Positions 2,822 through 37,990 are shown, counted from the stretch's first letter. The stretch is 54,982 nucleotides of DNA from Candidatus Wolfebacteria bacterium (GCA_024654025.1 JANLIR010000004.1:1-54982), one strand, 5' to 3'. Notes: generated by a model from the letters alone, not told the origin. Numbers and translations: made by a program.

Positions 2822-2896
2822 ACACTAATATTAAACTAATGAACACTAAAAGAATTTTATTAGTGTGTATTGGTTTTATATTGGTGTTTTTTAGCG
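2822..2896 (+). repeat. 75-nt signal-peptide module, copy 1 (paired with 4824-4898)
   Basis: Hand alignment gives 64/75 identical positions with 4824-4898. It spans the promoter-proximal region and signal-peptide codons of 2839-3864. Confidence 0.8.
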
Positions 2897-3864
2897 CGTT
2901 AAAAGCATCTGCCGACTCGGTCAATATTACCGCCTCGGTTAACTCGGTTTGCGGGAACGGAATTTTGGAAAACGGAGAGCAGTGTGACGGGACGGCCTTT
3001 GGTGGCGCATCATGCGTATCGCAGGGCTTTAGTGGAGGCACGCTTTCATGCGCTGCTTCGTGCACTTTTAATACTTCTCAATGCACTTCCGCGCCGCCGC
3101 CCTCTGGCGGAGGAGGTGGCGGAGGCGGCGGTGGATATGTCGCTCCAGTTACCAGCGCTATTTTTAACGGCAGGGCGTATCCCAAAAGCACGGTAACGCT
3201 TCTCAAGGATGCCCAGATTGCCGCCACAACCATCGCTGGCGCGGACGCTAATTTTCAGATAAGTGTTTCCGGTCTTTCTGGCGGTAACTATATCTTCTCG
3301 GTTTATAGCGAAGACAGTAAGGGTAATCGGTCGTCTCTCTTGACTTTTCCGGTGAGCGTAACTTCAGGCGCCACTACAAAAGTGAGTGGTATTTTTATTG
3401 CGCCAACAATTACGGTTGACAAAAGCGAAGTCAAAAGAGGAGATGATATTGCGATTTTTGGCCAGTCAGTTCCAAATAGCGAAATAACTATTTCTGTTAA
3501 TTCTGACGAGGAATTTTTTAATAAAATCAAGGCAGATGCCGGTGGCGTGTATTTGTATAATTTTGACACCTCGCCGCTTGAAATAGCGCAACATTTTACC
3601 AAATCAAAAACCGCGCTAAACGGCGAGATTAGTTCTTTTAGTAAAACCATAAGTTTTGCCGTCGGCACTAAAAATGTCGCCAAAGTCACGCAAGAGTTTT
3701 TGAAAGGAGATTTGAACAACGACGGCCGAGTAAATCTCGTTGATTTTTCTATTGTTGCGTATTGGTATAAACGACCTTCGCCGCCAGCTTCTGCTGATTT
3801 GAATGGCGATGGCAAAACTGACCTTGTTGATTTTAGTATTATGGCGTTTTATTGGACAGGGTAG
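2839..3864 (+). CDS. Secreted protein: signal peptide, Cys-rich repeat, Gly10 linker, Ig-like domains, C-terminal dockerin
   Basis: Signal peptide ends ...ALKASA. CGNGILENGEQCDG...C matches the Myxococcus-type Cys-rich repeat. The C-terminus GDLNNDGRVNLVDFSIVAYWY...ADLNGDGKTDLVDFSIMAFYW is a duplicated Ca-binding dockerin type I signature. Confidence 0.75.
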   Translation: MNTKRILLVCIGFILVFFSALKASADSVNITASVNSVCGNGILENGEQCDGTAFGGASCVSQGFSGGTLSCAASCTFNTSQCTSAPPPSGGGGGGGGGGYVAPVTSAIFNGRAYPKSTVTLLKDAQIAATTIAGADANFQISVSGLSGGNYIFSVYSEDSKGNRSSLLTFPVSVTSGATTKVSGIFIAPTITVDKSEVKRGDDIAIFGQSVPNSEITISVNSDEEFFNKIKADAGGVYLYNFDTSPLEIAQHFTKSKTALNGEISSFSKTISFAVGTKNVAKVTQEFLKGDLNNDGRVNLVDFSIVAYWYKRPSPPASADLNGDGKTDLVDFSIMAFYWTG

Positions 3865-17332: not shown

Positions 17333-18586
17333 ATGGAAAAATACCAATACTTAATCATTGGTGGGGGGGTGGCGGGTTTTACTGCCGCTGAAACACTAAG
17401 GCAAAAAGACGCCGGAAGTTCTATCGCCGTTATAAACAGCGAACCGTACGCTTTATATTCTCGGGTGATGTTATCAAAACCCGACTTTTTTTTGGGTAAA
17501 ATTCCTTTTGATAAAATATGGATGAGAGGCCAGGATTGGTACGAGAAAAACAACATAACTTTTTTTGGCGGAAAAACAGCCGCATCGCTTGACCCGAATA
17601 ATAAAATCGTAAAACTTTCCGACGGTTTGGAGCTGGGCTACGAAAAACTGCTTATTGCCACCGGAGTTTGCGCCAGAAAATGGGGTATTTCTGGATCTGA
17701 AAAAGAAGGCGTTTATTATTTGCGGACGATTGATGACGGAAAAAAAATAATGGAAGCCATTAAAACCGCTAAACGCGCTGTTGCTATAGGCGGCGGGTTT
17801 ATTAGTTTTGAAATGGCGGATTTATTTGCTTTGGCAAAAATAGAAACAAGCGTTGTTATCAGGGAAAATTATTTTTGGGAGCCGACTTTAGACGAGGCGT
17901 CAGGAAAAATGATTGAAAAAGTTTTAACCAATAACGGCGTTAAAATAATAAACAATGCCGAAGTTCAGGAAGTCATAGGAGCGGAGAAAGTTGAGGGCAT
18001 TGTTTTAAAAGATGGAAGAAAAATAGAATGCGATATGGTTATTTGCGGAATTGGAGTTGCTTGTGATCTTAACTGGTTTGCTTCATCGGGAATAAAAACA
18101 AATCGGGGAATTTTGGCAAATGAATATCTTCAGACCAATTTACCCGACGTGTGGGCGGCCGGAGATATTGCCGAATACAACGATTTGCTTTTGGAAGAAA
18201 ATATCCAGCTGGGGAATTGGGTCAATGCCCATGAGCAGGGAAGAATCGCCGGATTAAACATGGCCGGTGTCCACGAACCGTTTAAATTCGTTTCGTTTTA
18301 TACAACCCAAGGAATGGGAATCTCCGTCGCTTTTGTCGGCGATGTCCGGCTGGGCGAGGATAGAATTATAATAAAACGAGGATCTCCCGAAATAAATTCT
18401 TATGCCCGGATAATTATCGTGGGCAAAGAACTTGTAGGCGCTACTTTAATAAATAGAACAAGCGAGCTTTCGGTAATAGCTAAACTTATTGAAAACAATA
18501 TTGACGTTTCTCAAAAATATAAAGAACTTGAGAATCCAAATTTTGATTTAAAAAATCTTCTCGTGGTAGAAACAAAGGTTAATTAG
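17333..18586 (+). CDS. FAD-dependent pyridine nucleotide-disulfide oxidoreductase (ferredoxin/rubredoxin reductase-like)
   Basis: Two Rossmann motifs are present, IIGGGVAGFTAAE and AIGGGFISFE, plus AAGD. It lies directly downstream of the ferredoxin gene. Confidence 0.8.
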   Translation: MEKYQYLIIGGGVAGFTAAETLRQKDAGSSIAVINSEPYALYSRVMLSKPDFFLGKIPFDKIWMRGQDWYEKNNITFFGGKTAASLDPNNKIVKLSDGLELGYEKLLIATGVCARKWGISGSEKEGVYYLRTIDDGKKIMEAIKTAKRAVAIGGGFISFEMADLFALAKIETSVVIRENYFWEPTLDEASGKMIEKVLTNNGVKIINNAEVQEVIGAEKVEGIVLKDGRKIECDMVICGIGVACDLNWFASSGIKTNRGILANEYLQTNLPDVWAAGDIAEYNDLLLEENIQLGNWVNAHEQGRIAGLNMAGVHEPFKFVSFYTTQGMGISVAFVGDVRLGEDRIIIKRGSPEINSYARIIIVGKELVGATLINRTSELSVIAKLIENNIDVSQKYKELENPNFDLKNLLVVETKVN

Positions 18587-20633
18587 TCATAACTCTTGCG
18601 TCTACTATTTTTGTCTCATTTTCCGTTGCCATAACCGGATTCAAGTCGATTTCCTGGATTTCCGGGTGCTCAAGAGATAATTTTGAAACAGAAACAATAA
18701 GATTTTCCAGTTTTGCAAAATCAACAGATTTTTCTCCCCGAAGCCCTTTTAAAATAGGATAGCCCTTTATTTCTCCGAACATTTTTTGCGCTTCTGGTTT
18801 ATTAACCGGCGCGATTCGCGAAGAAACGTCTTTTAACGCTTCCGTAAAAATTCCTCCCATGCCAAAAACAATAACCGGTCCGAAAGTTTTATCTCTTTTC
18901 ATTCCAATTATTATTTCTTTGCCTTTCGCCATTGGCTGGATAATCATTCCGTCTATTTCTAATGCGTTAGCATTAGCCCTGAGCGAAGTCGAACGGGACG
19001 CCTTAATAGAATTGGTAATTTCATCCCAAGATTTTTCCGCCTCCACTAAGTTTTTAATATCCAATTTCACCCCCTTGAATTCGGTTTTATGGATTACATC
19101 CAGGGACACGACTTTCATAGCCATCGCTGATCCGCCGAATTTATTTATCGCGCTTGCTAATCCAGATTTTTCTTTTACAAATTCTCCTTCAAGCGAAATT
19201 CCATAATTACTAAAAAGTTTTTTTGTTTCTTCAAAATCTAAAAGTGAAAGATAAGAGACGGGAGAAGCAAGATGAGAGGAGCGCAATTCTTTACTGTTAT
19301 GCTGTATCATAACATCTAAAATTTCTACAACATCCCGGCTGTCGCCGAAATTCACAAGCCCGTTTTTCTTAAATTCCAAAAGCGCTTTGTAAATCGCTTG
19401 TCCGCCTATAAAAACCGGTAAAATCGGTTTTTTCTTGGCAAATTCGCCGAGCAATTTCGCCGTTTCTTCGGCTTGTGTCATCATCTGCGGAGTAAGTACG
19501 GCAATAATCGCGTCAATATTTTTTTCTTTGGTTAAAATATTTAAAGTTTTTGCGTAGCGGTCGCTTAAAGCATCGCCGATAATATCAACCGGATTATTTA
19601 TCGCAGCCATCGCTGGTAAGACTTTTTTAAGCGCGGTTTTGGTTGAATTTTTCAAGCTTGCTAATTCCAATGATTTGGAAAGGTCTATTAAATCCGCTGC
19701 TATAACTGACGGGCCGCCGCCGTTGGTTAAAACCGCTATTCGTTTTAAGGGCTTGAAAATGTCCATATGAAATAGCTTTGCGAAATTGAAAAACTGCCGT
19801 ATAGAGTCCACGGTTATAATGCCGGACTCGCGGCAGGCAGCGGCAAAAACCGAATCTTCCGGAGCAAGCGATCCGGTATGCGAAGCTACTGCGGCTATTC
19901 CTTTCGCGCTTCGGCCCGCTTTTAAAACTACAATCGGTTTTTTACGCGTTATTTTTTTAGCCAGCCGCATAAACTTTTTGCCGTCGCTTACCTTTTCAAG
20001 ATATAAAAGTATGGCTTTAGTGTTTTTGTCGTTTGCCAGATATTGTAAAAAATCTATTTCAGTTAATCCAGCTTCGTTTCCCAAGCTTATAAATTTCGAA
20101 AATCCGATGTTTCGGTTTTTTGCCCAATCAAGCATTGCCGCTCCCAGCGCGCCTGACTGTGAAACAAAAGCAATATTTCCCTTCAGTGGCATTTCGGTTG
20201 AGAAGGACGCGTTAAGATTGGAATAAGAATCAATTATTCCCAAGCAATTTGGCCCGAGTAGGGTGATTTTATATTTTTTTGCTATTGATTTTATTTTTTC
20301 TTCAAGTTCCAAGCCGTTTTTCCCGGCTTCTTTGAATCCTGAAGAAATAATAATTACATTAGAAATTTTTTTCTTTCCGCATTCTTCAAGTACTTGCGGG
20401 ACAATGTCTGCGCGAAGCGCTATTAAGGCCAGATCGATTTTATCTTTTATATCAAGAACTGAAGCGAAAGAGGGGAGATTTAAGATTTTTTTATATCCTG
20501 GATTTACCGGATAGATTCTTCTTTTATTTCCTGCCAGTAAATTTTTAACTAAAGAATAACCAACTTTATCTTTATTGGGCGAAGCGCCGATAACAGCAAT
20601 TGATTTTGGATTAAAAAGGTTTGATAGGTTCAT
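18579..20633 (-). CDS. ADP-forming acetyl-CoA synthetase (fused alpha-beta, NDP-forming acyl-CoA synthetase family)
   Basis: N-terminal CoA-binding domain (IAVIGAS...VYPVNP), the phosphohistidine segment SHTGSLA and a C-terminal ATP-grasp part. It is 684 aa and last in the OFOR operon. Confidence 0.88.
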   Translation of the reverse strand: MNLSNLFNPKSIAVIGASPNKDKVGYSLVKNLLAGNKRRIYPVNPGYKKILNLPSFASVLDIKDKIDLALIALRADIVPQVLEECGKKKISNVIIISSGFKEAGKNGLELEEKIKSIAKKYKITLLGPNCLGIIDSYSNLNASFSTEMPLKGNIAFVSQSGALGAAMLDWAKNRNIGFSKFISLGNEAGLTEIDFLQYLANDKNTKAILLYLEKVSDGKKFMRLAKKITRKKPIVVLKAGRSAKGIAAVASHTGSLAPEDSVFAAACRESGIITVDSIRQFFNFAKLFHMDIFKPLKRIAVLTNGGGPSVIAADLIDLSKSLELASLKNSTKTALKKVLPAMAAINNPVDIIGDALSDRYAKTLNILTKEKNIDAIIAVLTPQMMTQAEETAKLLGEFAKKKPILPVFIGGQAIYKALLEFKKNGLVNFGDSRDVVEILDVMIQHNSKELRSSHLASPVSYLSLLDFEETKKLFSNYGISLEGEFVKEKSGLASAINKFGGSAMAMKVVSLDVIHKTEFKGVKLDIKNLVEAEKSWDEITNSIKASRSTSLRANANALEIDGMIIQPMAKGKEIIIGMKRDKTFGPVIVFGMGGIFTEALKDVSSRIAPVNKPEAQKMFGEIKGYPILKGLRGEKSVDFAKLENLIVSVSKLSLEHPEIQEIDLNPVMATENETKIVDARVMTN

Positions 20634-20644
20634 TTTGTTTTCGT

Positions 20645-21424
20645 TTATGCATAAAGCGATTCTTCGAAAGTTGGCTTTTCTACTTTATAAAAAACTCCCA
20701 AGGCGATTTTTTCCTCCTGCGCCGTGACTTTTTTAATAGCGGTTTCAAGTTTTTGAGAGGGATATTTTTTATCAATCCAATAAGTGTGGTCTTTGTAAAA
20801 ATCACGGGTGTCATAAAAAGTGATACAGGGTTGGATAATATCCATAAAAGAAAATCCTTTATGCTCAATTGCCTGCCTCATGATTTTTTTAGTGCCTTCA
20901 ATATCTCCTGCGTAAGTACGGGCCACAAAAGTTGCGCCGGAGGCAAGCATCAAAAGAAGGGGATTAAAAGGCTCCTCTATACTTCCTGAGGGCGTGGATT
21001 TGCCTTTAAATCCTTTAGGGCTTGTGGCCGTTGCTTGTCCGGTAGTTAGGGCAAAAACCTGGTTGTCGTGTATAAAAAGATTTACATCCGAATTTCTTTT
21101 TGCCGCGTGTATTAAGTGTTCGGCTCCTTCTGAGTATGAATCGCCGTCTCCGCTAAAGCCCACCACTTGAAGATTGGGATTGGCAATTTTTATTCCCTGC
21201 ATTGTTGGAAGTAACCGTCCGTGAAGCGAAGTAAAAGTATTTATGTTTAAATAATCGGTGATTTTTCCGTGGCAACCTATTCCGCCAACCGCGACAAGAT
21301 TTTCGAGTTTTAAGCGCCCTTCATTTCTTAGTTCTTCGACCAGTTTTCTAAACGCAACTAAAATAGCCGAGTTCGGGCATCCGGGACACCAAGTTATTTT
21401 TGCGTTTGTGGCTAAATTTTCCAT
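20645..21424 (-). CDS. 2-oxoacid:ferredoxin oxidoreductase beta (TPP-binding) subunit
   Basis: WCPGCPNS, GGIGCHG and GDGDSYSEG motifs. Confidence 0.9.
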   Translation of the reverse strand: MENLATNAKITWCPGCPNSAILVAFRKLVEELRNEGRLKLENLVAVGGIGCHGKITDYLNINTFTSLHGRLLPTMQGIKIANPNLQVVGFSGDGDSYSEGAEHLIHAAKRNSDVNLFIHDNQVFALTTGQATATSPKGFKGKSTPSGSIEEPFNPLLLMLASGATFVARTYAGDIEGTKKIMRQAIEHKGFSFMDIIQPCITFYDTRDFYKDHTYWIDKKYPSQKLETAIKKVTAQEEKIALGVFYKVEKPTFEESLYA

Positions 21425-21425
21425 A

Positions 21426-23165
21426 TTATAAAATTTCGTTTAATTGTTTTGCTAATTCAATCACTTCGAACGGCAAAGAATCATATTTCAAAATTTTGTT
21501 TTCAATATTAATTCCAGTTTTTTCTCGAATAACTGAAGCTAATTGCCCAGTGCGGTTATTTTCAACGATAATTATATTTTTAGCGTCTTTTAAATTTTCT
21601 GTTACTTTTTCTGAATCAAATGGTGACATCCAGAGTATTTGCAGAAATTTCGGCTGTTTTTTTAAATATTTTCCCGCTTCCAAAACCGCGCCTTTTGTTG
21701 ATCCCCAAAAAACAATCACGTTTTTTGATTTTGGGTCGCCATAAACTTTTACGGTATCGTATTTGGAAAATTCTTTTTCCAATTGCTTTAATTTTGAAAA
21801 GCGTTTGTCGCCCATAGCTTTTACCAGTTTTGGGTCTTCGGTTGAAATTCCCTCTTCGGTGTGTTCATAGCTTGTGGCCTTGATGACCGCCCCCGCCGTT
21901 CCCGGAAACGCCATTTCCGATACACCGTCCTCGGTTATTTGATAACGTTTATACCCACCACTAATATTTTTGGCAACTTTCCCTTTTTCAACGGCGATTT
22001 TACTAATATCCAAAATACTTGTTGAAGAATTTTCGGATAAATGTTTATCCAATAAAACAATTGCCGGCACCTGGTATTTCCAGGTTAAATTTAGAGCGTC
22101 AGCCCCTGCTTTAAAAGCTTCTTCCGGGTCTCCGGGGGCAATAACAATGCGCGGAAATTCTCCGTGCCCTGAATTTATTATGAATTTCAAATCGCCTTGG
22201 GCAGTGTGAGTGGGTGAGCCGGTAGCAGGCGCCTGCCTTTGTGAAACCGCGATGGCTATCGGTGTTTCGGACATCCCTGCTAAAGCAAACGCTTCTTGCA
22301 TAAGCGCGAAACCTCCTCCGGCAGTGCCTATGGCAGTCCGTTTTCCGGCATAAACTGCGCCAAGCGCCATATTGATAACCGCTATTTCATTTTCCGGATG
22401 TATTACTTTAAATAATTTTTTCCCGGATTCTTTTAAAAATCGGGATTGTTTTGCCAAGTAATGCAGGATTGAAGTTGACGGCGTCATTGGATAAGCGATA
22501 TAAAAATCAAGCCCAGCTGCTAAAAGTCCTTTTGCAAAAGCAGTATTTCCATCCGCTAATTCTTTTCCGCCATCTCCATTGTGTTCCATTCGTCGGGAAT
22601 GCCGGAACCCAAGATTTTCCAGATGTTTATATCCTTTTTCCGCTAGTGTTACGTTTATTTCATATCCTTTTTCTTTGAAAACACGGCGGAGAATTTGGTC
22701 TATTTCGCCAAAGGGCAAATCAAGTAAATAACAAACAGCGCCCAGCGCTACGGAAGTCCGGGTTATTGCCGGGGCGTTTAATTCTTCCGTTGTTTTTATC
22801 ATAGGAAGGAGCATTGCGTTTTGACCGAACATTTTTAAATCTTCGGCATCGAATTTTTCCGAAAAAACAACTGCGTCTCCGTTTAACTCGTTTTTATGAA
22901 GATGCATTGTTTCATCGTTTAACGCGATCAAAACGTCTATTTTTGAATAATCGTTATAAATTTTTTCTTTGGAAAAGCTGATGCGGCTAAAATTATGCCC
23001 GCCTCTGATAAGAGACGGGTAATCAAAAGAAACAAAAACTTCAAAACCGAGTTTCGTAAGAAACCGGCCTAAATTCGTGCCTGCTTCACGTACGCCGTCT
23101 CCGGCCGCTCCGCCAACGGCAACCGTAAAAATATTAGGGGACTGATTTTTCTTTTTCCAGAACAT
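21426..23165 (-). CDS. 2-oxoacid:ferredoxin oxidoreductase fused gamma-alpha subunit
   Basis: The N-terminal gamma-like domain (GGAAGDGV...GGHN) is followed by the alpha domain (GNTAFAKGLLAAGLDFYIAYPMTPST). Only 1 nt separates it from the beta gene. Confidence 0.9.
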   Translation of the reverse strand: MFWKKKNQSPNIFTVAVGGAAGDGVREAGTNLGRFLTKLGFEVFVSFDYPSLIRGGHNFSRISFSKEKIYNDYSKIDVLIALNDETMHLHKNELNGDAVVFSEKFDAEDLKMFGQNAMLLPMIKTTEELNAPAITRTSVALGAVCYLLDLPFGEIDQILRRVFKEKGYEINVTLAEKGYKHLENLGFRHSRRMEHNGDGGKELADGNTAFAKGLLAAGLDFYIAYPMTPSTSILHYLAKQSRFLKESGKKLFKVIHPENEIAVINMALGAVYAGKRTAIGTAGGGFALMQEAFALAGMSETPIAIAVSQRQAPATGSPTHTAQGDLKFIINSGHGEFPRIVIAPGDPEEAFKAGADALNLTWKYQVPAIVLLDKHLSENSSTSILDISKIAVEKGKVAKNISGGYKRYQITEDGVSEMAFPGTAGAVIKATSYEHTEEGISTEDPKLVKAMGDKRFSKLKQLEKEFSKYDTVKVYGDPKSKNVIVFWGSTKGAVLEAGKYLKKQPKFLQILWMSPFDSEKVTENLKDAKNIIIVENNRTGQLASVIREKTGINIENKILKYDSLPFEVIELAKQLNEIL

Positions 23166-24161: not shown

Positions 24162-24536
24162 ATGCCACTCGTACAGATTTTTACTACTCGTTCTATTCTA
24201 TCGGCAGGTGGCGACAACTCGGTTAAGCCCATGCTTACGGCTCTGCCTAAAATTATTGCGGAGCATCTAAGCATTCCGGTCGCCGGTGGCAAATTAACCC
24301 CGAACGATATTATTGTCCGAGTAAATCAACGGAATGACCACGATTATTTTCCTGAGCACTTTGAGGTGATTATTGAAGCGCAGGAGTTTCCGGAGCGTCT
24401 TGCCAATTTGAATGAACGCGCGGAAAAGATTGCGGATGATCTTTATTTTCTCACTCCGCGAAACATCTATCCGAGCGTATGGCTTACGTTCAAAAAAGGC
24501 GTTTTTGTTGAGACGCGCGGCAGGTGTGATCGTTGA
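24162..24536 (+). CDS. Tautomerase-superfamily-like protein (N-terminal Met-Pro)
   Basis: ATG at 24162 is preceded by AAAAGGGGA. The N-terminus MPLVQIFTTRS resembles Pro-1 tautomerases (4-OT/MIF). The longer ORF-track version (23964) overlaps the upstream gene and is rejected. Confidence 0.3.
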   Translation: MPLVQIFTTRSILSAGGDNSVKPMLTALPKIIAEHLSIPVAGGKLTPNDIIVRVNQRNDHDYFPEHFEVIIEAQEFPERLANLNERAEKIADDLYFLTPRNIYPSVWLTFKKGVFVETRGRCDR

Positions 24537-24551
24537 ATTCAGCTTGCTTGT

Positions 24552-24590
24552 GACGCACGCCCCAATCATTGGGACACGGCGTCTTTTTTT
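24552..24590 (+). terminator. Rho-independent terminator
   Basis: Bipartite GC stem (GACGC...GCGTC enclosing CCCAA tca TTGGG) followed by T7. Confidence 0.7.
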
Positions 24591-24605
24591 ATTTTCAAAA
24601 AGCCG

Positions 24606-24614
24606 TGTTATAAT
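24606..24614 (+). promoter_or_regulatory. Extended -10 TGTTATAAT upstream of the hydrogenase genes
   Basis: Exact TGnTATAAT, 13 nt upstream of the ATG at 24628, right after the terminator. Confidence 0.5.
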
Positions 24615-24627
24615 TTATAAAAATAAA

Positions 24628-25110
24628 ATGGACGAAGCTGAAAAAATAAAAATCGGGTGGTTTTCATTTTCCTGCTGCGAGGACAACACCATAGTGATGA
24701 CTGAAGTAATGAACGATCATTGGCAGGAGTGGAAGAAAATTTTTGATTTTCGCCATGTGCGGGTTTTGAAATCAAAAAATATCTATGATGAATTCGACAT
24801 TGCTTTTATAGAAGGCGCGATTGCTTCCGATGGGCAAGAAACGCAACTAAAAGACATAAGGAGCCGTTCAAAAAAACTTGTCGCAGTAGGCGCTTGTGCG
24901 GTGGTGGGGTTGCCCGCCGGCCAGAGGAATACATTCACGGCCGAACAAAACCAAAGTATTCAGTTTTTAATAGACAGATTTAAGGCGCTACCGAAAGTTT
25001 TGCGCGTTAAAGACGTGGTTAAGGTGGACGCGGAAATCCCGGGATGCCCGATGAGTCCGGACAATTTTTTAAAGGTTGTTAATGATTTAGTCGCTGAACT
25101 ACAAAAATAA
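24628..25110 (+). CDS. NiFe hydrogenase small subunit, minimal NuoB-like form (proximal cluster only)
   Basis: Four-Cys pattern FSCCED, GACAVVG and GCPM. It is 160 aa and lies directly upstream of the large subunit. The start was moved to the internal ATG at 24628. Confidence 0.75.
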   Translation: MDEAEKIKIGWFSFSCCEDNTIVMTEVMNDHWQEWKKIFDFRHVRVLKSKNIYDEFDIAFIEGAIASDGQETQLKDIRSRSKKLVAVGACAVVGLPAGQRNTFTAEQNQSIQFLIDRFKALPKVLRVKDVVKVDAEIPGCPMSPDNFLKVVNDLVAELQK

Positions 25111-25111
25111 T

Positions 25112-26410
25112 ATGCATAGTTTCAATTTATCTTTAGAACATATCACAAAAATAGAAGGCAATGCTTCGCTTTCGGTTAAAGTTGAAGACGGCAAGGTTAA
25201 AGACGTTAATTTCAAAACAATGGAATACAAGCGTTTTTTTACCGAAGCAATGAAAGGTAAATCCATCGCCGCGCTTCCGGCGCATTTGGCGAGAATTTGC
25301 GGCACTTGTTCTAACGCGCATATTATTTGCAGTATTGAGGCGTGTGAAAATGCGATTGGTATAACAGCGACAGAGCAGACGAAAATTTTAAGAGCTTTAA
25401 CTTTGCACGGGCTTATTATAAGAGACCACGCGCTTCATTTGTATTTGTTTTCGATGCCCGATATTTACGGTAAAGACGCGTTTTTAGATTTTGACGAAAA
25501 TAATCCCGAGGAGCATCAATTACTTCACGACGGGTTTGAAGTAAAAGCCGCGGGAAATTTTTTGGCAACTTTAATTTCCGGCCGAAGTGTTCACGCGACT
25601 TATCCGGCAGTGGGAGGATTTTTGCATTTTCCCGATAAAGCGGGCATAGACGAGGCTATTAAAAAACTTCAATCAGTCCGGCCCGCGATTTTGCGTTTGA
25701 TAGAAGTTTTTAAAAACGCGCCGTTTCATTTTGACAGGAAAACCCAATATATGGCGCTCGTTCCCGAATATAGCTACGGCTATATAAATGGAAGTATTAA
25801 AACCAGCAAAGGCGAAACTTACGGCGAAGATAAATTCAGAGACCATTTAGAGCACGTTGTTTTGCCTTATTCGCAGGCATCTGCTTATCAATACGACGGT
25901 GAAGGATATATGGTTGGGGCTTTGGCGCGCGTAAATCTCGCCAAAGATTTGCTTCATCCGGAAACAAAAAAATTTCTAAAATCACTTGGCGATATTTTAA
26001 ATCTTTTTCCGTCGACAGATATTTTTTATAACAATTTGGCGCAGGCGATTGAGATTTTGCATTCAGTGGACGAGTCAATTGATTTGTTGAGTAATAACAA
26101 TTTTGCGGCTGAACCGCTTATAAAAGCAATGCCCCGTGAAGGAGTAGGCATCGGAGTTATAGAAGCGCCGCGCGGCACTTTGTATCACAAAGTTGTTGTT
26201 GGCGCAGACGGATTGGTCAAAGAAGGGGAAGTGATAGTTCCAACCGGCCAAAATCAAATAAACATAGAAAGAGACGTTGCCACGCTTGTGCAAAATCTTT
26301 TACCTGATACGCCTAAAGAAAAAATCGAATTTGAAATCGAAAAACTTATCCGCGCGTACGATCCGTGCATGAGCTGCGCGGCCCATTTTCTTAAAGTGAA
26401 CTGGGAATAA
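25112..26410 (+). CDS. NiFe hydrogenase large subunit
   Basis: N-terminal Ni-binding motif RICGTCSNAH and C-terminal DPCMSCAAH, followed by a 7-aa tail (FLKVNWE). Confidence 0.9.
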   Translation: MHSFNLSLEHITKIEGNASLSVKVEDGKVKDVNFKTMEYKRFFTEAMKGKSIAALPAHLARICGTCSNAHIICSIEACENAIGITATEQTKILRALTLHGLIIRDHALHLYLFSMPDIYGKDAFLDFDENNPEEHQLLHDGFEVKAAGNFLATLISGRSVHATYPAVGGFLHFPDKAGIDEAIKKLQSVRPAILRLIEVFKNAPFHFDRKTQYMALVPEYSYGYINGSIKTSKGETYGEDKFRDHLEHVVLPYSQASAYQYDGEGYMVGALARVNLAKDLLHPETKKFLKSLGDILNLFPSTDIFYNNLAQAIEILHSVDESIDLLSNNNFAAEPLIKAMPREGVGIGVIEAPRGTLYHKVVVGADGLVKEGEVIVPTGQNQINIERDVATLVQNLLPDTPKEKIEFEIEKLIRAYDPCMSCAAHFLKVNWE

Positions 26411-32158: not shown

Positions 32159-32614
32159 TTACCCATTGATTGTATCGTTTAATGTCTGAATGTATTTGCT
32201 TAACCATTCCTCGATTTCTAATAGAAACAAATCTTTATTGTCTGCTCCTTTTGACTCCGCTACTCTTCTGGCTAAATTAACTAAATAGTCTTCAATTTCT
32301 TCTTGCGGACCGCGAAGCCACAAATTATTTATAAACAAAAAAATCAAAAGTGAAGCTGTTGCGGTTCTTTTATTCCCGTTTTTGAACGGATGATTTTTTA
32401 TTAATCCATAGTACAAAATCGCTGCTTTTTTGTGGAATGTTGGATAATAAGGTTGTTTGGGGTTATTAAGCGCCGATTCAAGAAGGGCAATTTCATGGTC
32501 GTCAAATTTTGTCATCGGCTCTACTGACGAATCAAAAAGCGCCACCGCTATCGGGTGGCACATTTTTTCCATTAATTCTCTGTTGATAAAGTTAATATTT
32601 TCAGACTCTGTCAT
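32159..32614 (-). CDS. doc: Doc-type toxin (Fic fold, kinase subfamily)
   Basis: HPFKNGNKRTA matches the Doc variant of the Fic motif (compare P1 Doc HIFNDANKRTA). The preferred start is the ATG at 32614, which overlaps the antitoxin stop by 14 nt; the ORF track uses GTG at 32638. Confidence 0.8.
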   Translation of the reverse strand: MTESENINFINRELMEKMCHPIAVALFDSSVEPMTKFDDHEIALLESALNNPKQPYYPTFHKKAAILYYGLIKNHPFKNGNKRTATASLLIFLFINNLWLRGPQEEIEDYLVNLARRVAESKGADNKDLFLLEIEEWLSKYIQTLNDTING

Positions 32615-32768
32615 ATTCGGCAAGCCGTTCAAAAACACGACGATAATCTTTTATCGCTTTTTTTGCTCCTTCAATCGCTTTTTTTTCAAGCTCGGCTTTA
32701 TTGAGGGGCACTGTTTTGACTTCCTTTTTAGCGCTCTTTTTAAATATTTTTCCTAAAATCTTCCTCAT
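32601..32768 (-). CDS. Phd-like antitoxin partner of Doc (55 aa, absent from the ORF track)
   Basis: Hand translation gives MRKILGKIFKKSAKKEVKTVPLNKAELEKKAIEGAKKAIKDYRRVFERLAEYDRV. TGGTATAAT (32775-32783, minus strand) lies 6 nt upstream of the ATG. The stop overlaps the doc start, which is classic type II TA coupling. Confidence 0.6.
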   Translation of the reverse strand: MRKILGKIFKKSAKKEVKTVPLNKAELEKKAIEGAKKAIKDYRRVFERLAEYDRV

Positions 32769-32839: not shown

Positions 32840-33802
32840 TTATTTTTTATCTTTAATGCTATTCAAGATTTTTTCTACTTTTTTTATGCTTTCTAAGTCG
32901 AGAATGGAAATAGCAATTGCGCGGGAGTCTATTTTTTTAAGAACTGTTAATTTTTTATTAAGCTCTTTTTGTGTTACAAGATCGCTCTTTGTAAGAAAAA
33001 GGCGTTCCGGTTTTTTAAGAAGTTTTTTGTTATACAAGCCCAATTCTTTGCGGATGGTCTTGTAGTCCTTTGAGGGAGCAGAAGATTCCGATGAAATAAA
33101 ATGAAAAAGAATATTTGTCCGCTCAATATGGCGGAGAAATTTAATGCCAAGCCCTTTGCCGCTTGACGACCCTTCTATGAGCCCGGGGATATCCGCGAGG
33201 ATAAGTTCGTAGTACGCGCCTAAGTTTGGCTCAAGCGTGGTAAATGGATAATTTGCCACTTTGCTTTTGGCGTTTGTGAGCTCGTTAAGTAAGCTTGATT
33301 TGCCGACATTTGGAAGTCCCACGAAACCGACATCTGCGATGAATTTAAGTTCAAATCTGAATTTGAAATCTTCTCCCGGCGTGCCTGTTTGCGCGTATTT
33401 CGGCGAGGTGTTACGGGGAGAACGAAAATGAAAATTACCTTTTCCGCCGATTCCGCCTTTTGCAAGGAGAATCCGTTCGCCGATTTTTTCAACGTTAATT
33501 TCACTGCCGTTTGTAAGGTTGTGAGCTACGGTTCCAACCGGCAGTTTCAAAACAAGGTCTTCTCCGTCTTGGCCGTCACGGAACTGTCCGCGGCCGTCCT
33601 GGCCGTTATCCGCGGTAAATTCTTTTTTAAAGCGAAACTGTTGGAACGCGCTCAAATCAGAAACACCTTCTCCATAAACGCTTCCGCCTTTGCCTCCCGA
33701 CCCTCCGGCGGGCCCTAAGCTCATTAAGTTTGTATTAAACGTCGATGCGCCTTTTCCGCCATGGCCAGCGTTTATTTTTATTTCTACATCATCGATGAGC
33801 AT
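32840..33802 (-). CDS. obg: GTPase Obg/CgtA (short form)
   Basis: Gly-rich Obg fold (GGKGASTF, GGSGGKGG), G1 GLPNVGKSS, G2 YPFTTL and G3 DIPGLIEG. Confidence 0.9.
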   Translation of the reverse strand: MLIDDVEIKINAGHGGKGASTFNTNLMSLGPAGGSGGKGGSVYGEGVSDLSAFQQFRFKKEFTADNGQDGRGQFRDGQDGEDLVLKLPVGTVAHNLTNGSEINVEKIGERILLAKGGIGGKGNFHFRSPRNTSPKYAQTGTPGEDFKFRFELKFIADVGFVGLPNVGKSSLLNELTNAKSKVANYPFTTLEPNLGAYYELILADIPGLIEGSSSGKGLGIKFLRHIERTNILFHFISSESSAPSKDYKTIRKELGLYNKKLLKKPERLFLTKSDLVTQKELNKKLTVLKKIDSRAIAISILDLESIKKVEKILNSIKDKK

Positions 33803-33839
33803 TGTTTTTTAATTATATTAAGATTGAAACTTAAACCCC

Positions 33840-33893
33840 TAAAGGATTCTTTGGGTTAATTTATTATAACAGATTGTCCCGCTCCGGTCAGGG
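33840..33893. repeat. Island repeat copy A (right half only)
   Basis: 44/54 identical to 36020-36073 by hand alignment. It carries TGTTATAAT on the minus strand (33863-33871). Confidence 0.8.
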
Positions 33894-33929
33894 AAAACAT
33901 CACTGTTGAAATGTGGACATTTCTAACAA

Positions 33930-34937
33930 TTAGTAATCCTCGTTAGGAAATATGAATTTCCTGGGTGGAGGCTTAATGTGTCGTATCTCAGAATCTATTT
34001 TTTTCAGAGAATCTTTTATTGATTCATTTTTTTCTTCTTCGGTAGATGTGTGTAACACGGTCATTCCAACCTTCTTTTTAATTTGTTCACTTTCGAGTGT
34101 GTATATTATTTCGTTTATTTTATTAAAAACCTCCTCGTATCTTATTAGATAAGGTGGCAGCTCTGCATACTTAAGATGTGTTATGAAAAACCGATGTACG
34201 GCTCGATTCCGAAAATCGTACAACTCATTTAGTTCCCCATATATATTTTTATCAATAATGTTCAAATCTTTTGCCATAGCTATGATATTTCTCTCGCTTA
34301 TATACTTCTTCCCTTTTTGGAAAATCAAATCTTCATTGACGGCCATAGTTTTTTTAATTATTTGCTCTTTAAGAACAATAGCCATTCTTAGTAGACCATC
34401 TATCAATGAGGCATAAAGAACAAGTCCCTCCATTAAACTACCTTCGGCACAAGCCTTTGTAAGCAATATACGTGCTGCTCCAATGGCCCTAAGAATATTG
34501 ACCAATGGATTTTTCTTGTTTTCTTTTTCGAGATCCGACTCCAACACCTTCATTCTTGCAATTCCCCTTATTACTGCCGATAAAAAATTCTCACCCTCTT
34601 TTCTAAGCTTTGAAGAAACACTCAGACTAAAATCTTTAGTTTTATCGTGTCCATAACCTACAGACCATCCACCTTTAAAATCGTAACAAGTTAACAAGCC
34701 ATGTTTAGTTTTGAAGACCCAAGTCCAAGTCGTTTTTTTATCAATAAACATAACACCGTCCGTGTCTAAATTAGGCGGGCCATATACCGTATTTAATAGA
34801 TCAAAAACTTCGTTTGCAGAAATATTAGAATCAAAGGGAGTGCCGCACAGAAAAGCCCCGCCGTATATCTTAATCTTAGGAGAGTATTCGAATCGCGAGA
34901 TGGGGAATTTTTTTCTTAGTTCATCTTTTAGGTCCAT
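33930..34937 (-). CDS. Two-domain protein with C-terminal HEPN-like domain (R-x4-H)
   Basis: The C-terminal helical region ends in LNELYDFRNRAVHRF (RNRAVH = Rx4H). The ~180-aa N-domain is unrecognised. The start was set to the ATG at 34937; the longer ORF-track version reads through repeat copy B. Confidence 0.5.
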   Translation of the reverse strand: MDLKDELRKKFPISRFEYSPKIKIYGGAFLCGTPFDSNISANEVFDLLNTVYGPPNLDTDGVMFIDKKTTWTWVFKTKHGLLTCYDFKGGWSVGYGHDKTKDFSLSVSSKLRKEGENFLSAVIRGIARMKVLESDLEKENKKNPLVNILRAIGAARILLTKACAEGSLMEGLVLYASLIDGLLRMAIVLKEQIIKKTMAVNEDLIFQKGKKYISERNIIAMAKDLNIIDKNIYGELNELYDFRNRAVHRFFITHLKYAELPPYLIRYEEVFNKINEIIYTLESEQIKKKVGMTVLHTSTEEEKNESIKDSLKKIDSEIRHIKPPPRKFIFPNEDY

Positions 34938-35018
34938 CTGTTTTATTCCATGAGAACTATTAGTAAAGCTGGCTATCCACAAACATCCCAGCTCCCCTTG
35001 ATACCGCGCTAACTGCTG

Positions 35019-35095
35019 CTGTGTTCTCCGGTCTGGAACCCACCAGAGCAAGACCGTTAAAGGATTTTTTGGGTCAATTTATTATACCAAATTGA
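35019..35095. repeat. Island repeat copy B (full length)
   Basis: 68/77 identical to 35981-36057. It contains the hairpin TCTGG-n6-CCAGA and TGGTATAAT on the minus strand (35081-35089). Confidence 0.85.
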
Positions 35096-35272
35096 CCCGC
35101 CTGTCTATCCATAGCACTTGGCGAAGGTGGGATGCTGGAGCTTATTTAAGGATTTAATTATATAACAATTTGCGTTTAAGATATATGTTTTTAATAGGAT
35201 TTTATGCTTTGACAGTTATCCACACTCTAATTGACTTCTAATACCGGAGGTTATATATTTAATATATAAACG

Positions 35273-35305
35273 CCCCAGCCAGCCGCAAGGTCCGCTGGGG
35301 TTTTT
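35273..35305 (+). terminator. Orphan terminator-like hairpin CCCCAGC...GCTGGGG plus T5
   Basis: Read directly. There is no ORF upstream on the plus strand. It lies 30 nt upstream of the NYN gene start. Confidence 0.4.
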
Positions 35306-35335
35306 AGTTATCAAAGTATTGTATATAATAATAAA

Positions 35336-35938
35336 ATGACAACTTTTTTACTAATAGACGGAGAAAATTTTAAGGGCAAAATAAGGGATGTTTTCAAAGA
35401 AGTTGGTAAAAACAAACCGATATGGCATGAATATGATTTTAAAGGCCTTCTTGATAAAGTTTTACAAGGAATAGATATAGAAAAATCTATTTTTTATTTT
35501 GCAAAGATTAAAGAAGACCCACAAACAAGGGAAAAGTCAAAACGGCTCATTGAAGAACAACGTTTATTAAAAACGCATTTAGAAAAACAAGGATTTGAAG
35601 TCATATTAACCGGTCGAGTAAGAGGTCATATGGAAAATAACGGCTCATCGGAAAAATCCATTCTTGTTTTCAAAGAAAAAGGCGTTGATGTAAAAATTGC
35701 GGTTGATATGGTTAGTTGGTCTTGCGATAAAAAAAGCGATCAAATTATTTTAGGCAGCTCTGACTCTGATTTACAACCCGCAATAAAAGAAATAAGAAAA
35801 AGAGGAACTAATTGTATTTATTTAGGTTTTGAAACACAACCGAATAAGGGATTAACTTATACCACAAATCGCACGATTTTAATTCGTAATTCCGAAATAA
35901 TGGAATTTGAAAGCAGAATTAATAAGGACACTTCTTAG
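35336..35938 (+). CDS. NYN-domain (LabA/PIN-like) ribonuclease
   Basis: LLIDGENF, GVDVKIAVDMV and ILGSSDSDLQPAIKEIRKRG. TATAAT lies 6 nt upstream of the ATG. Confidence 0.7.
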   Translation: MTTFLLIDGENFKGKIRDVFKEVGKNKPIWHEYDFKGLLDKVLQGIDIEKSIFYFAKIKEDPQTREKSKRLIEEQRLLKTHLEKQGFEVILTGRVRGHMENNGSSEKSILVFKEKGVDVKIAVDMVSWSCDKKSDQIILGSSDSDLQPAIKEIRKRGTNCIYLGFETQPNKGLTYTTNRTILIRNSEIMEFESRINKDTS

Positions 35939-35980
35939 AGCGGGCCAGAGCGCGATTTTACAACAATACTGTGTGCCTCA

Positions 35981-36074
35981 CTGTGTTCTCCGGTCTAGAG
36001 CCCACCAGAGCAAGGCCGTTAAAGGGTTATTTGAGTTAATTTATTATATCAGATTGAAGAGTTTCGGTCAGGGG
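35981..36074. repeat. Island repeat copy C (full length, longest)
   Basis: It matches copy B over the left and centre parts and copy A over the right part. TGATATAAT is on the minus strand at 36043-36051. Confidence 0.85.
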
Positions 36075-36137
36075 TTAAATATTTAAAGTTCAGAACTTAA
36101 ACTCGCTTTATCCGACCAATATTGATAAAATTATTTT

Positions 36138-36989
36138 ATGGCAAGGCACAGGTACAAAGACGATAGGGATTCAATATGGGATATTGCGGCTTCTCTTATT
36201 GGCCTTTATTTTCTTTGGCTTGTATTTCTTTACATTACAGATCGTACCGCGTACTGGAGACAATTTTGGTACTTTGTAGTGTTTCTTGTTGTTGTCATCG
36301 CTGGGTCTTTCGCGTGGAAAGAATTCCGATACCGAAGGAAACAGAAAAAGTTAGATAACCTTATAAACTCTATCAAACAAAACGGCTTAGAAGACGATGT
36401 TAAAAACTTCATTAATCGCTTCGGGATGCATAAAGGGAAGGACGACTGGAAATATTTAGACCATAGCTTCGATTGGGAGCAGCTGAAAATTTTTAGAAAA
36501 GTGTTAAATGAAAAAGGAACGCAACTTTCTCTCGATAAATGGGACGATGTACTTTCCTTGCTTCGCAATTATATTCACGACACAGGAGAGAAAGTTATTC
36601 GCGATAGCATCAGCTTAAACCCGAAAAAGTTTACAGACCTTTCCGGCCCGGAGTTTGAGAATCTTCTTTACCGTTTATTTGAAGCGATGGGATATACCGT
36701 TCAGCCTACAGGTAAGACAGGAGATCAGGGTGGCGATTTAATCGCAAACTTAAACGGGCAAAGACTAGTAATCCAAGCAAAATGTTATAGCGGAACAGTC
36801 GGCAACAAGGCGGTTCAAGAAGCAATAGCTGCAAAAAGGATTTATGACTGTAATAGGATCGTGGTTGCGACTAATTCAAGTTTTACTAAAGAGGCTTTTG
36901 AGTTGGCGAGGGTATGGAATGTGGAGCTTGTCAGTGGCGAGAAGTTAAGTGAATGGTTATTACAATACCTTAAAGAAAGTTGGGGTTAG
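36138..36989 (+). CDS. Membrane-anchored Mrr-like restriction endonuclease domain protein
   Basis: Two N-terminal TM helices and a C-terminal Mrr_cat pattern FENLLYRLFEAMGY...GDQGGDLIA...VIQAKCY...VATNSSFTKEA. TGATAAAAT lies 6 nt upstream of the ATG. Confidence 0.7.
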   Translation: MARHRYKDDRDSIWDIAASLIGLYFLWLVFLYITDRTAYWRQFWYFVVFLVVVIAGSFAWKEFRYRRKQKKLDNLINSIKQNGLEDDVKNFINRFGMHKGKDDWKYLDHSFDWEQLKIFRKVLNEKGTQLSLDKWDDVLSLLRNYIHDTGEKVIRDSISLNPKKFTDLSGPEFENLLYRLFEAMGYTVQPTGKTGDQGGDLIANLNGQRLVIQAKCYSGTVGNKAVQEAIAAKRIYDCNRIVVATNSSFTKEAFELARVWNVELVSGEKLSEWLLQYLKESWG

Positions 36990-37013
36990 GGACCGCATGA
37001 TAAAAATCTAAGT

Positions 37014-37088
37014 GCTGTGTACCTCAGTCTAGAGCCTCCTAGAGTAAGACCGTTAGTAATTTATTTAAGTAATTTTATTTTATCATCT
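37014..37088. repeat. Island repeat copy D (diverged, with a short deletion)
   Basis: CTGTGTACCTCAGTCTAGAGCCTCCTAGAGTAAGACCGTTAG... is colinear with copies B and C. The hairpin reads TCTAG-n6-CTAGA. TGATAAAAT is on the minus strand at 37077-37085. Confidence 0.7.
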
Positions 37089-37109
37089 CAACGTGTTTCG
37101 AGCACAAAT

Positions 37110-37796
37110 TTACTTACCCCTTTCTTTATCTATTTCTGATTGAATCCATGCATCTCCGGCGGCCTCAATTTCTTCCGGGGTCGGTTCAGCGTCTTGCATT
37201 TCTTTTTCTTCAAATTGTCTTCTGCGCTCGTCCAATGTTTCGCCCTCATACATCCAATAATCAGTACCTGCAACTCCATAATCATAGCCAAGAATTTTTT
37301 GTGCTGACGTAGAAAGGCTAGTTTTTTCATCATCAAATTCAATGGCACGATCGTTAATAACCTTTGCCTTTTTACTTTCATCGCGACTAAAAGCCAGCTC
37401 TGCACCAATTGGTATATCTACCAGACTAAATTTAAAAACCGATCTTCTTGCTCGTGCTTGATGTAGTGCTTGCCGATCTTCTTTGTCATCTATAAATTCC
37501 TTTTTTGGGGTTATATTTTCTATTTCAGCTAATTTTAGAGCCGCCACAACTCTCTCCGGACCTATTTGAAAAAACTCTCTTCTTGGATTTATCCGACTAT
37601 CATCAAAAGCATCGTGTAGTTGGTTTTCAACAAATGCCGCATCTTTTACAGTGCAGGCATAAAAACACGTGAAAGGGAGGGGAATGTTTGTTGATGTGCT
37701 CAACTCTCTAATTCTTTGTTCTAAGCTAGTAGAAGTTTTACCGATTTTTACATAACCGGGCATCGCTTCGTTTATGAGAACATATATGATATTCAT
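37110..37796 (-). CDS. T5orf172 / GIY-YIG-like domain protein
   Basis: IYVLINEAMPGYVKIGKT...RIRELS...LHDAF...REFF is typical of the T5orf172 family. The C-terminal half is acidic. Confidence 0.65.
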   Translation of the reverse strand: MNIIYVLINEAMPGYVKIGKTSTSLEQRIRELSTSTNIPLPFTCFYACTVKDAAFVENQLHDAFDDSRINPRREFFQIGPERVVAALKLAEIENITPKKEFIDDKEDRQALHQARARRSVFKFSLVDIPIGAELAFSRDESKKAKVINDRAIEFDDEKTSLSTSAQKILGYDYGVAGTDYWMYEGETLDERRRQFEEKEMQDAEPTPEEIEAAGDAWIQSEIDKERGK

Positions 37797-37919
37797 AATT
37801 TTTGACGTTTCTACTGTCTAATAAAACGAATTAAATAATTTCTATTGAAGACCTACTTCTGCTTTGCTACTTCGAGGCACTTGATTTTGCGAACGCTATC
37901 GCGTGGCAAAATCTAAGAG

Positions 37920-37990
37920 CTGCGGGGCTAGGAATCGGACCTAGATTTAGAGGTTCAAAGCCTCTCGTGCTACCATTACACTACCCCGCA
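37920..37990 (-). tRNA. tRNA-Gln (anticodon UUG)
   Basis: Hand-folded cloverleaf: acceptor UGCGGGG/CCCCGCA, anticodon stem AGAGG/CCUCU, loop CUUUGAA, T arm CUAGG-UCCGAUU-CCUAG. No CCA is encoded. Confidence 0.8.

Follow-up and report, generated by a model that had tools for sequence, protein, structure and literature searches.

By which route do bacteria of the candidate phyla radiation (CPR), whose genomes are tiny and contain few recognised mobile elements, come by accessory and anti-phage genes? This unclear point takes concrete form in a 54,982-nt stretch from Candidatus Wolfebacteria bacterium (GCA_024654025.1 JANLIR010000004.1:1-54982; 'the window' hereafter), where a 4.1-kb island between tRNA-Gln and obg holds four cargo genes and four copies of a repeat, here called the unit, which is ~100 bp long when complete. 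An earlier reading of the same DNA (the original prediction) had proposed that the repeat might mark a recombination point or the edge of a cassette, form a structured RNA or bind a protein. Our analysis leads us to conclude that the units are probably attachment-site arms of small cassettes that were serially integrated at the 3′ side of tRNA-Gln.

A repeat search placed copy B at 35019-35095, copy C at 35981-36057 (88% identical to B) and copy D at 37015-37091 (66%), and recovered a second family made up of the right half of the unit, with copy A at 33840-33893, B at 35058-35111 (72% identical to A) and C at 36020-36073 (81%). All four lie on the same strand regardless of the orientation of the cargo genes, and each of the obg/HepT-like, HepT-like/NYN, NYN/Mrr and Mrr/T5orf172 gaps contains one. 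A profile hidden Markov model (HMM) likewise found exactly four copies in the window (E = 5e-21 for C, 8.5e-21 for B, 2.8e-12 for D and 5e-7 for A), and a 34-nt repeat consensus matched B and C only, with no match expected by chance in 55 kb. The original claim of four same-orientation copies, one per gap, with B and C most alike and D more diverged, is thus borne out by both searches. Since the copies differ by 12-34% and their flanks are unique, they are not assembly duplications, the objection that had been foreseen against them. In full, unit B extends over 35019-35111 and unit C over 35981-36082, both on the minus strand, as are unit D (37015-37111), the most diverged full copy, and unit A (33835-33898), which consists of the right, promoter-side half only.

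In the minus-strand reading, the unit opens with a (T)GACC-N5-GGGTC palindrome, followed in order by a TGnTAnAAT box, CCCTTA, GGTCTCACC...GGT and TCTAGACCGGAGAACACAG/C. Its end is a near-invariant segment of 19-22 nt with a tRNA-T-arm-like pattern (GGTTCTAGACC GGAGAACACAG/C); conservation is highest at the far end of the leader and not in the promoter. Pairs of units within one genome (L110, L081 and L010; L-numbers are labels of comparison loci from other genomes) share ~100 bp, from the palindrome to exactly CACAG(C), and copies in one genome are far more similar than copies from different genomes; the repeat family and its boundaries are thereby directly established. To judge from their sequence, the GACC-N5-GGGTC palindrome and TGTCTCAT are candidate protein-binding motifs. 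Seven other loci, but not the window, have direct repeats TGTCTCATTTGTCTCAT 10-40 nt before the unit and inverted TGAGACA copies further upstream (for example L025 7270-7290, L090 3040-3075 and upstream of units in L107 and L110), which are probably binding sites for a regulator or accessory protein.

Further copies, which the original prediction had asked for, were found in related genomes. The search pattern CTGTGTTCTCCGGTCT-N(1-30)-AGRCC matched 12 genome contigs, 10 of them from Patescibacteria of several classes, as well as further metagenome contigs, and the profile HMM identified ~34 non-redundant Patescibacteria loci with a unit (E<1e-3). A strict 29-nt unit pattern had no match among genome contigs, a looser one (16-mer plus gap) had none in IMG/VR, and blastn of a foreign unit against phage records returned chance matches only. 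Seven metagenome contigs (L096, L098, L100, L112-L114 and L116) have in common an identical stretch of >200 nt that contains the search 16-mer by chance and is otherwise unrelated to the unit; this is a repeated sequence of some other organism. A discrete ~100-bp unit with sharp bounds, present in several copies per genome and in many Patescibacteria lineages, could also be a miniature inverted-repeat transposable element (MITE) or a REP-like non-autonomous transposon scattered between genes. We think this hardly likely: terminal inverted repeats and target-site duplications are absent at the boundaries of within-genome pairs, the multi-copy arrays are all direct (seven of seven, in the window, L110, L081, L010, L120, L107 and L146), and the window copies are all in one 4-kb island, with none in the remaining 51 kb.

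The right half of the unit resembles a promoter that points outward. On the minus strand, A and C contain a CTGACC-17-TATAAT site with a TG extension (followed in C by ...TCTAGACCGGAGAACACAG), and D contains a weaker one without TG (TGATAAAAT as −10-like box, then TCTAGACTGAGGTACACAG); in B, direct reading shows a TGGTATAAT box, around which lies a private perfect 10-bp palindrome, GGGTCAATTT-n8-AAATTGACCC. A promoter scan of the whole region gave no more sites than in shuffles. A co-oriented gene follows shortly after ~25 of 34 units, and units C and D of the window point into the 3′ ends of opposite-strand genes. Half-copies that keep the promoter side only (A in the window and one in L107) both break off after CC(C/T)TTA, CCTTTA in the case of A, and are located directly before genes. 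The units contain no terminator-like site, except for a weak (+)-strand stem-plus-T-run at the edge of copy A (33838-33855). The earlier statement that ordinary promoters do not explain the repeat was only half right: a good minus-strand extended −10 promoter-like site does lie in the right half, and a co-oriented gene is usual. From its sequence, we would give the unit promoter an even chance of being active.

These features invite comparison with the promoter early stem-loop elements (PeSLs) of T4-type phages, small conserved intergenic modules with a sigma-70-type promoter that flank variable genes and mark the break-points of exchange (PMC2839356, PMC4122927). A mobile regulatory cassette of this type would be mainly a portable promoter and 5′ leader, around which genes are shuffled by homologous recombination with no dedicated site-specific recombinase. 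Besides this documented precedent, the TG-extended −10 elements, the frequent co-oriented gene, the greater likeness of copies within a genome than between genomes and the promoter-side half-copies directly before genes all speak for it. We nevertheless consider it unlikely as the explanation, because it does not account for C and D facing the 3′ ends of opposite genes or for conservation that peaks at the far end of the leader, and because it leaves unexplained four observations given below: the link to tRNA-Gln, the tRNA trailer repeats after units, the unit variant ending like tRNA-Arg at a tRNA-Arg site and the permuted position of a large serine recombinase (LSR). PeSLs differ, moreover, in relying on homologous recombination in phages and in having a real terminator, unlike the present units, which have a tRNA site, recombinase-bearing relatives and no terminator that we could find. 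The two readings can be compatible if the unit, as an attachment-site arm, merely carries an outward promoter.

We next consider RNA structure, since the original prediction had described a covarying hairpin in the unit. The G-C, G-U and A-U series at the fourth pair of that hairpin is truly present in B, C and D, but in a structure alignment of 16 units from 14 genomes the helix pairs in 55% of cells compared with a shuffled mean of 54.7%, and the claim of covariation does not survive this comparison. For the competing outer stem, which had also been pointed out, the pairing itself holds: 87.5% of cells are paired when GGTCT/AGACC is taken together with an inner ACC/GGT stem, and GGTCT/AGACC pairs in 87% in register compared with 18-49% when the partners are slid. 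The stem is, however, near-invariant, and its covariation measures were equalled or beaten by 45 to 137 of 500 shuffles, which is not significant. On both strands, single-strand folding of C, D and three foreign units was no better than that of shuffles (z-scores of +0.5 to +1.6 for C, D, L110 and L081); unit B alone folds significantly, because of its private palindrome.

The in-register pairing, and the order of a promoter followed by a conserved 40-45-nt segment, would suit a structured non-coding RNA or cis-regulatory leader, riboswitch-like or a small RNA, repeated before genes. Yet Rfam 15 (gathering scores; E<=10), applied to the window and five foreign loci, yielded only tRNAs and chance-level matches, the RNAalifold consensus reached just −2.3 kcal/mol with a covariation term of −0.12, the stems are invariant instead of covarying, the inner hairpin is missing altogether in L025 and L089, and the functions of the genes downstream are unrelated. 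A structured RNA is thus very unlikely, and the weak folds, the lack of an Rfam match and the lack of covariation indicate that the unit is conserved in sequence, not in structure. ARAGORN did not call any unit as a tRNA or tmRNA fragment.

What ties the units together is their genomic setting. The island begins directly after tRNA-Gln(UUG) (37919-37990, minus strand; ARAGORN and Rfam), abutting the 3′ end of the tRNA at 37919, as is the case in seven other loci, and its other boundary is the conserved host gene obg (32840-33802, minus strand; Pfam GTP1_OBG). The best matches to the Obg protein come from Patescibacteria, which marks the source organism as a CPR bacterium. Relatives share this order of tRNA-Gln and then obg on the same strand (conserved synteny); the two genes are separated by 71 nt in L016, by 290 nt in L024, by 0.8-1.8 kb in several loci and by as much as 8.6 kb. 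Eight obg-proximal spacers, the shortest included, contained nothing unit-like, and L016 and L024 thus represent the unoccupied site; the 4.1-kb island of the window is accordingly an insertion into a recurrent hotspot, which is directly observed. Units lie within the tRNA-Gln-obg interval, co-oriented with the tRNA, in the window, L010, L014 and L025, and tRNA-Gln is upstream of units on the same strand in eight loci (the window, L002, L014, L025, L089, L091, L110 and L148), four of which (L089, L091, L110 and L148) were found independently of obg.

Three other origins for parts of this arrangement were tried and rejected. Copy A is not the native obg promoter, given that the short tRNA-Gln-obg spacers of relatives are unlike A; obg keeps its own TAATATAAT box 9 nt upstream of its ATG, as in L001, and copy A therefore belongs to the island. 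Nor did the unit arise by duplication of tRNA-Gln together with its promoter, for the right half of the unit bears no relation to the sequences upstream of tRNA-Gln. The end of the unit does not mimic the 3′ end of tRNA-Gln specifically either, its likeness being generic to T-arms in a control of 97 tRNAs.

Unit-bounded modules of 0.8-1.2 kb directly follow tRNA-Gln elsewhere as well, with a low-molecular-weight phosphatase (L091), a 266-aa protein (L002), a GIY-YIG protein and one more gene (L014) or a ParE toxin-antitoxin pair (L089) as cargo, and L110, L010 and L081 have further small modules (0.9-2.3 kb) between their units. Given such comparable modules in other genomes, those of the window look like members of a recurrent class and not like random debris.

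In three loci, the sequence after a unit recurs after the tRNA. In L089, CAGCACCAGTCAGCGAGCCTGCCTGCCGGCAGGCAGGTATCGRGGGACCA is 49/50 identical after the tRNA and after the unit, with weaker similarity to ~80 nt. In L148, the copies of a 36/38-nt repeat, CAGCASTCATATACTAAGTCAGGTGACCGAGACGCSTC, are 16.6 kb apart and bracket an element with an LSR and a ParB-type gene (score 66 compared with a null maximum of 31). In the window, the 15-nt sequence CAGCNCTTAGATTTT occurs exactly twice, at 37908-37922 (CAGCTCTTAGATTTT, minus strand), where it comprises the last 4 nt of tRNA-Gln and its trailer, and at 37003-37017 (CAGCACTTAGATTTT, minus strand), where it spans the 3′ boundary of unit D; the two regions, that of the tRNA and that of D, align locally with p<0.002. 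Among 12 further loci with an LSR and a tRNA searched for long direct repeats, L148 alone was significant.

Trailers after tRNAs and after units also fall into shared types. Type 1, ACCAGTCAGCG...GGTATCGAGGGA, follows tRNA-Gln in L025 and L089 and units in L087, L089 and the window, where it flanks B (CAGCAGTTAGCGCGGTATCAAGGGGAGC, 34991-35018, minus strand). Type 2, TTAGATTTTGC...GCAAAATC, follows tRNA-Gln in the window, L014 and L004 and units in L002 and, again, the window (D), and type 3, CTAAGTCAGGTGAC, follows tRNA-Gln in L110 and L148 and the unit in L148. The 19-mer CATGTGAGNCCGACCGAGG follows tRNA-Arg in L170 and a unit in L091. Within the tRNA-Gln trailer of the window (37860-37918) we noted a hairpin, GATTTTGC...GCAAAATC, that is also present after tRNA-Gln in L014 and after the unit in L002, and is conserved despite its position outside genes. 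L170 and L180 have their element at a different tRNA, tRNA-Arg(CCU), and their unit variant contains GGGCACCA, the 3′ end of that very tRNA.

Full-size relatives provide a candidate enzyme. In five loci, a conserved gene set lies divergent from the unit and 0.4-3.3 kb away, encoding a ParB_N plus N6_N4 methylase protein (ParB-methylase), a small helix-turn-helix (HTH) or terminase-small-like protein and a large terminase. ParB-methylase is conserved at 65-79% identity across many classes of Patescibacteria, in at least 144 species, compared with ~30% for phage homologues. The orientation of the unit relative to ParB was the same in all 26 unit matches in ParB loci (E < 0.1), at distances of 0.4-7.8 kb, and restriction-modification and other accessory genes lie in between. 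About 45 of 80 ParB-methylase loci encode an LSR (Resolvase, Recombinase and Zn_ribbon domains). In the series L118-L197 (for example L148 7992-16162 and L170 7995-11397), ParB-methylase and the small HTH protein are followed by either the large terminase or the LSR, and this set near tRNA 3′ ends looks like a very widespread CPR family of prophage-like or defence-island elements.

The LSR gene takes two positions. In L148, L170 and L180, the order is tRNA, one gene, LSR with HTH and ParB-methylase, defence cargo and unit; in L085 and L139 the LSR gene and the CACAG end of the unit overlap, in L130 138 nt separate the end of the gene from CACAG, and in L107 the gene converges on the CACAG end from 3.6 kb away. 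These two placements are identical on a circle, that is, they are circular permutations, which puts the integration junction between the 3′ end of the LSR gene and CACAG; by eye, no inverted-repeat relation was seen across the presumed crossover in L085. The tRNAs beyond the LSR in ParB loci (Ser, Gln, Arg, Asp, Asn and Glu) have their 3′ end toward it in every case, and most of 13 LSR-facing tRNA trailers have GACC(C)GAG or a close variant, the motif that also opens the unit, 10-35 nt from the tRNA end. The flank repeats and this architecture of the relatives are matters of observation, and of the three roles first proposed for the repeat, that of a cassette boundary has been strengthened by them: the window has single-gene modules in a tRNA-Gln hotspot, other Patescibacteria have the same arrangement, a tRNA trailer follows units, and units stand at one end of LSR-bearing integrative elements.

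One gene per module, a site orientation that is fixed whatever the orientation of the gene, and a repeat of 55-100 bp, within the range of attC, are also what an integron-like array would present, in which an IntI-type tyrosine recombinase would act on the units as attC sites, folded from single-stranded DNA. Three defining features already contradict this reading, which is, to our mind, scarcely credible. The units lack the RYYYAAC/GTTRRRY core pair, the ends of B, C and D being, by direct reading, CTGTGTT... and ...GGTCAGGG; no hairpin is consistently stable on either strand, that of B alone being significant; and neither the window nor the related loci that we inspected showed a tyrosine recombinase, IntI and attI being likewise absent beside the array. 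Furthermore, the homology between copies runs ~50 nt beyond any candidate crossover.

On the reading that we favour, with the units as attachment-site arms, a cassette would consist of a short trailer-like segment, one cargo gene and the ~100-bp unit, with its putative protein-binding palindrome GACC-N5-GGGTC, putative outward extended −10 promoter and T-arm-like end, directly after which the recombination junction would lie. A newcomer would recombine its unit/trailer junction (attP) with the tRNA-Gln/trailer junction (attB, or an attB-like attL), and each integration would displace the older cassettes toward obg. Four cassettes can be laid out accordingly. The youngest position, next to the tRNA, would be that of E3 (37918-37015), with the 15-nt repeat as left and right junctions, which terminates in unit D and carries a 228-aa T5orf172/MUG113 protein of the GIY-YIG superfamily (37110-37796, minus strand; Pfam PF10544 and PF13455). 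E2 (37014-35981) would terminate in unit C and carry a membrane-anchored Mrr-type restriction endonuclease of 283 aa (36138-36989, plus strand; Pfam Mrr_cat, 3.5e-27), and E1 (35980-35019) would terminate in unit B and carry a 200-aa NYN/LabA-like nuclease (35336-35938, plus strand; Pfam NYN, 2.2e-15). E0, the oldest, would extend from 35018 to ~33835 and comprise the type 1 trailer, a gene for a 335-aa protein that is weakly HepT-like (33930-34937, minus strand; Pfam PF01934, E = 3.6e-4, under the family cut-off) and half-unit A. With no recombinase among the 41 window open reading frames scanned, these modules would be non-autonomous, and they could move only by means of an enzyme provided in trans. 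That enzyme would be of the LSR type of the full-size relatives, a proposal for and against which we see equal grounds; the exact crossover point would be the unit boundary given above, and the cassettes of the window may still be able to move.

Several observations weigh against this reading. No recombinase was present among the 41 window open reading frames (ORFs) scanned with Pfam, the ten longest ORFs being left out of that scan, and tblastn with the LSR of L085 had no match in the window. A clean direct repeat exists in the window for E3 only and not for E1 or E2; the flank of C matches nothing, and that of B matches a trailer type only. The left half is missing, with the same breakpoint, from copy A and from the half-copy in L107, which the model does not predict. 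The unit end matches the 3′ end of tRNA-Gln at 14/28 positions (TGGTTC, CC and C.CAGC), no better than it matches other tRNAs. The large serine recombinases that have been characterised act at simple ~50-bp sites around a 2-bp core; a 100-bp arm, accessory motifs and repeats of 15-80 bp look more like the sites of tyrosine integrases, although no such integrase was seen. HepT-like homologues occur on two other contigs (L198 and L199) without a unit. Finally, neither an empty site nor an excised circle was found for the source genome, which is absent from the collections searched; exact look-ups of the NYN and Obg proteins of the window likewise returned no record, and hence no strain variants of the island were compared.

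As regards what the cassettes carry, PADLOC matched three of the four cargo proteins to known or candidate anti-phage families: the T5orf172 protein to the candidate defence family PDC-S57 (E = 6e-71), the Mrr protein to the ZorD nuclease domain, PDC-S02 and mREase_IV, and the NYN protein to HEC-09 and NYN. To go by these similarities, three of the four island genes look like anti-phage defence genes. Homologues of the HepT-like protein are 44-76% identical to it, and in L198 and L199, where there is no unit, this gene does not travel with one. The closest of these homologues (66% identity; L198 122-2424) adjoins a large serine recombinase gene split into three ORFs, next to which are a HTH_17 protein and a SNF2 helicase/N6_N4 methylase/ResIII cluster, that is, a defence island with a decayed recombinase.

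Within E1, ahead of the NYN gene, the plus strand at 35231-35305 has a good promoter-like site (TTGACT-17-TATATT), directly after which come a GC-rich hairpin, CCCCAGCCAGCCGCAAGGTCCGCTGGGG, and a T-run that stop ~30 nt short of the NYN start codon. This may be an attenuator, the remnant of a terminator or a transcript of very small length. Around the island, Pfam identified obg, Fic, PNPOx and dnaX besides tRNA-Gln, the Fic/DOC-family gene, which is again of an accessory type, being located just beyond it at 32159-32638, directly downstream of obg. Elsewhere, the window (24412-26410 and 18579-23165) contains energy-metabolism genes in an otherwise minimal Patescibacteria genome, among them those for the small and large subunits of a NiFe hydrogenase and, at 20645-21424, between two long unscanned ORFs, one for a thiamine pyrophosphate-binding beta-type subunit of pyruvate:ferredoxin oxidoreductase. 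A 341-aa protein encoded at 2839-3864 combines a type I dockerin domain at its C terminus with a bacterial Ig-like domain, which is unusual for the group.

The locus and its relatives suggest one route for the acquisition of accessory genes in CPR, through a tRNA-anchored hotspot, a ~100-bp junction sequence and a widespread ParB-methylase/HTH/LSR-or-terminase family, and the junction sequence offers a practical search handle for variable cargo in uncultured genomes. Our literature search on integrons, intergenic repeats and serine-recombinase prophages in Patescibacteria found no description of the unit or of its arrays. We put forward tentatively, as a possibility on the doubtful side, that Patescibacteria may have an integron-like form of gene capture, in which cassettes would dock at a tRNA 3′ end (that of tRNA-Gln in this case, those of tRNA-Arg and others at other loci), the ~100-bp promoter-bearing arm plus trailer would be the cassette site, and an LSR acting in trans, from a ParB-methylase/terminase element elsewhere in the genome or from a co-resident element, would move single-gene defence cassettes in and out. 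Should mobilisation of the single-gene modules in trans prove true, there would be a second cassette system beside integrons, of independent evolutionary origin, from which serine recombinases with defined natural targets at tRNAs could also be drawn.

Each known system to which the arrays can be likened shares part of this design. Integrons have in common with them single-gene modules, sites of fixed orientation, frequent defence or toxin-antitoxin cargo and, on our reading, an enzyme acting in trans; they differ in that here IntI, attC cores and a folded site are lacking and the anchor is the 3′ end of a tRNA instead of attI. The staphylococcal cassette chromosome (SCC) and psi-SCC elements of staphylococci and enterococci employ serine recombinases (CcrAB or CcrC) for serial insertion at the 3′ end of one conserved gene, and their arrays are built of modules between same-orientation direct repeats, some of them without a recombinase. 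The likeness stops at the target, which is rlmH and not a tRNA, and at the repeats, which are 15-18 bp and not a 100-bp promoter arm. The tycheposons of Prochlorococcus integrate next to tRNAs, are flanked by att repeats, displace older elements when newcomers arrive, and form islands that also include cargo-only and degenerate elements with defence or adaptive cargo (10.1101/2020.12.28.424599). Tandem tRNA-targeted elements, att-repeat flanks and defence cargo are thus features common to both, but tycheposons use a partial tRNA copy and a tyrosine recombinase, whereas in the present arrays the arm is a ~100-bp non-tRNA sequence, the sole recombinase seen in relatives is an LSR, and the modules of the window are single genes of ~1 kb.

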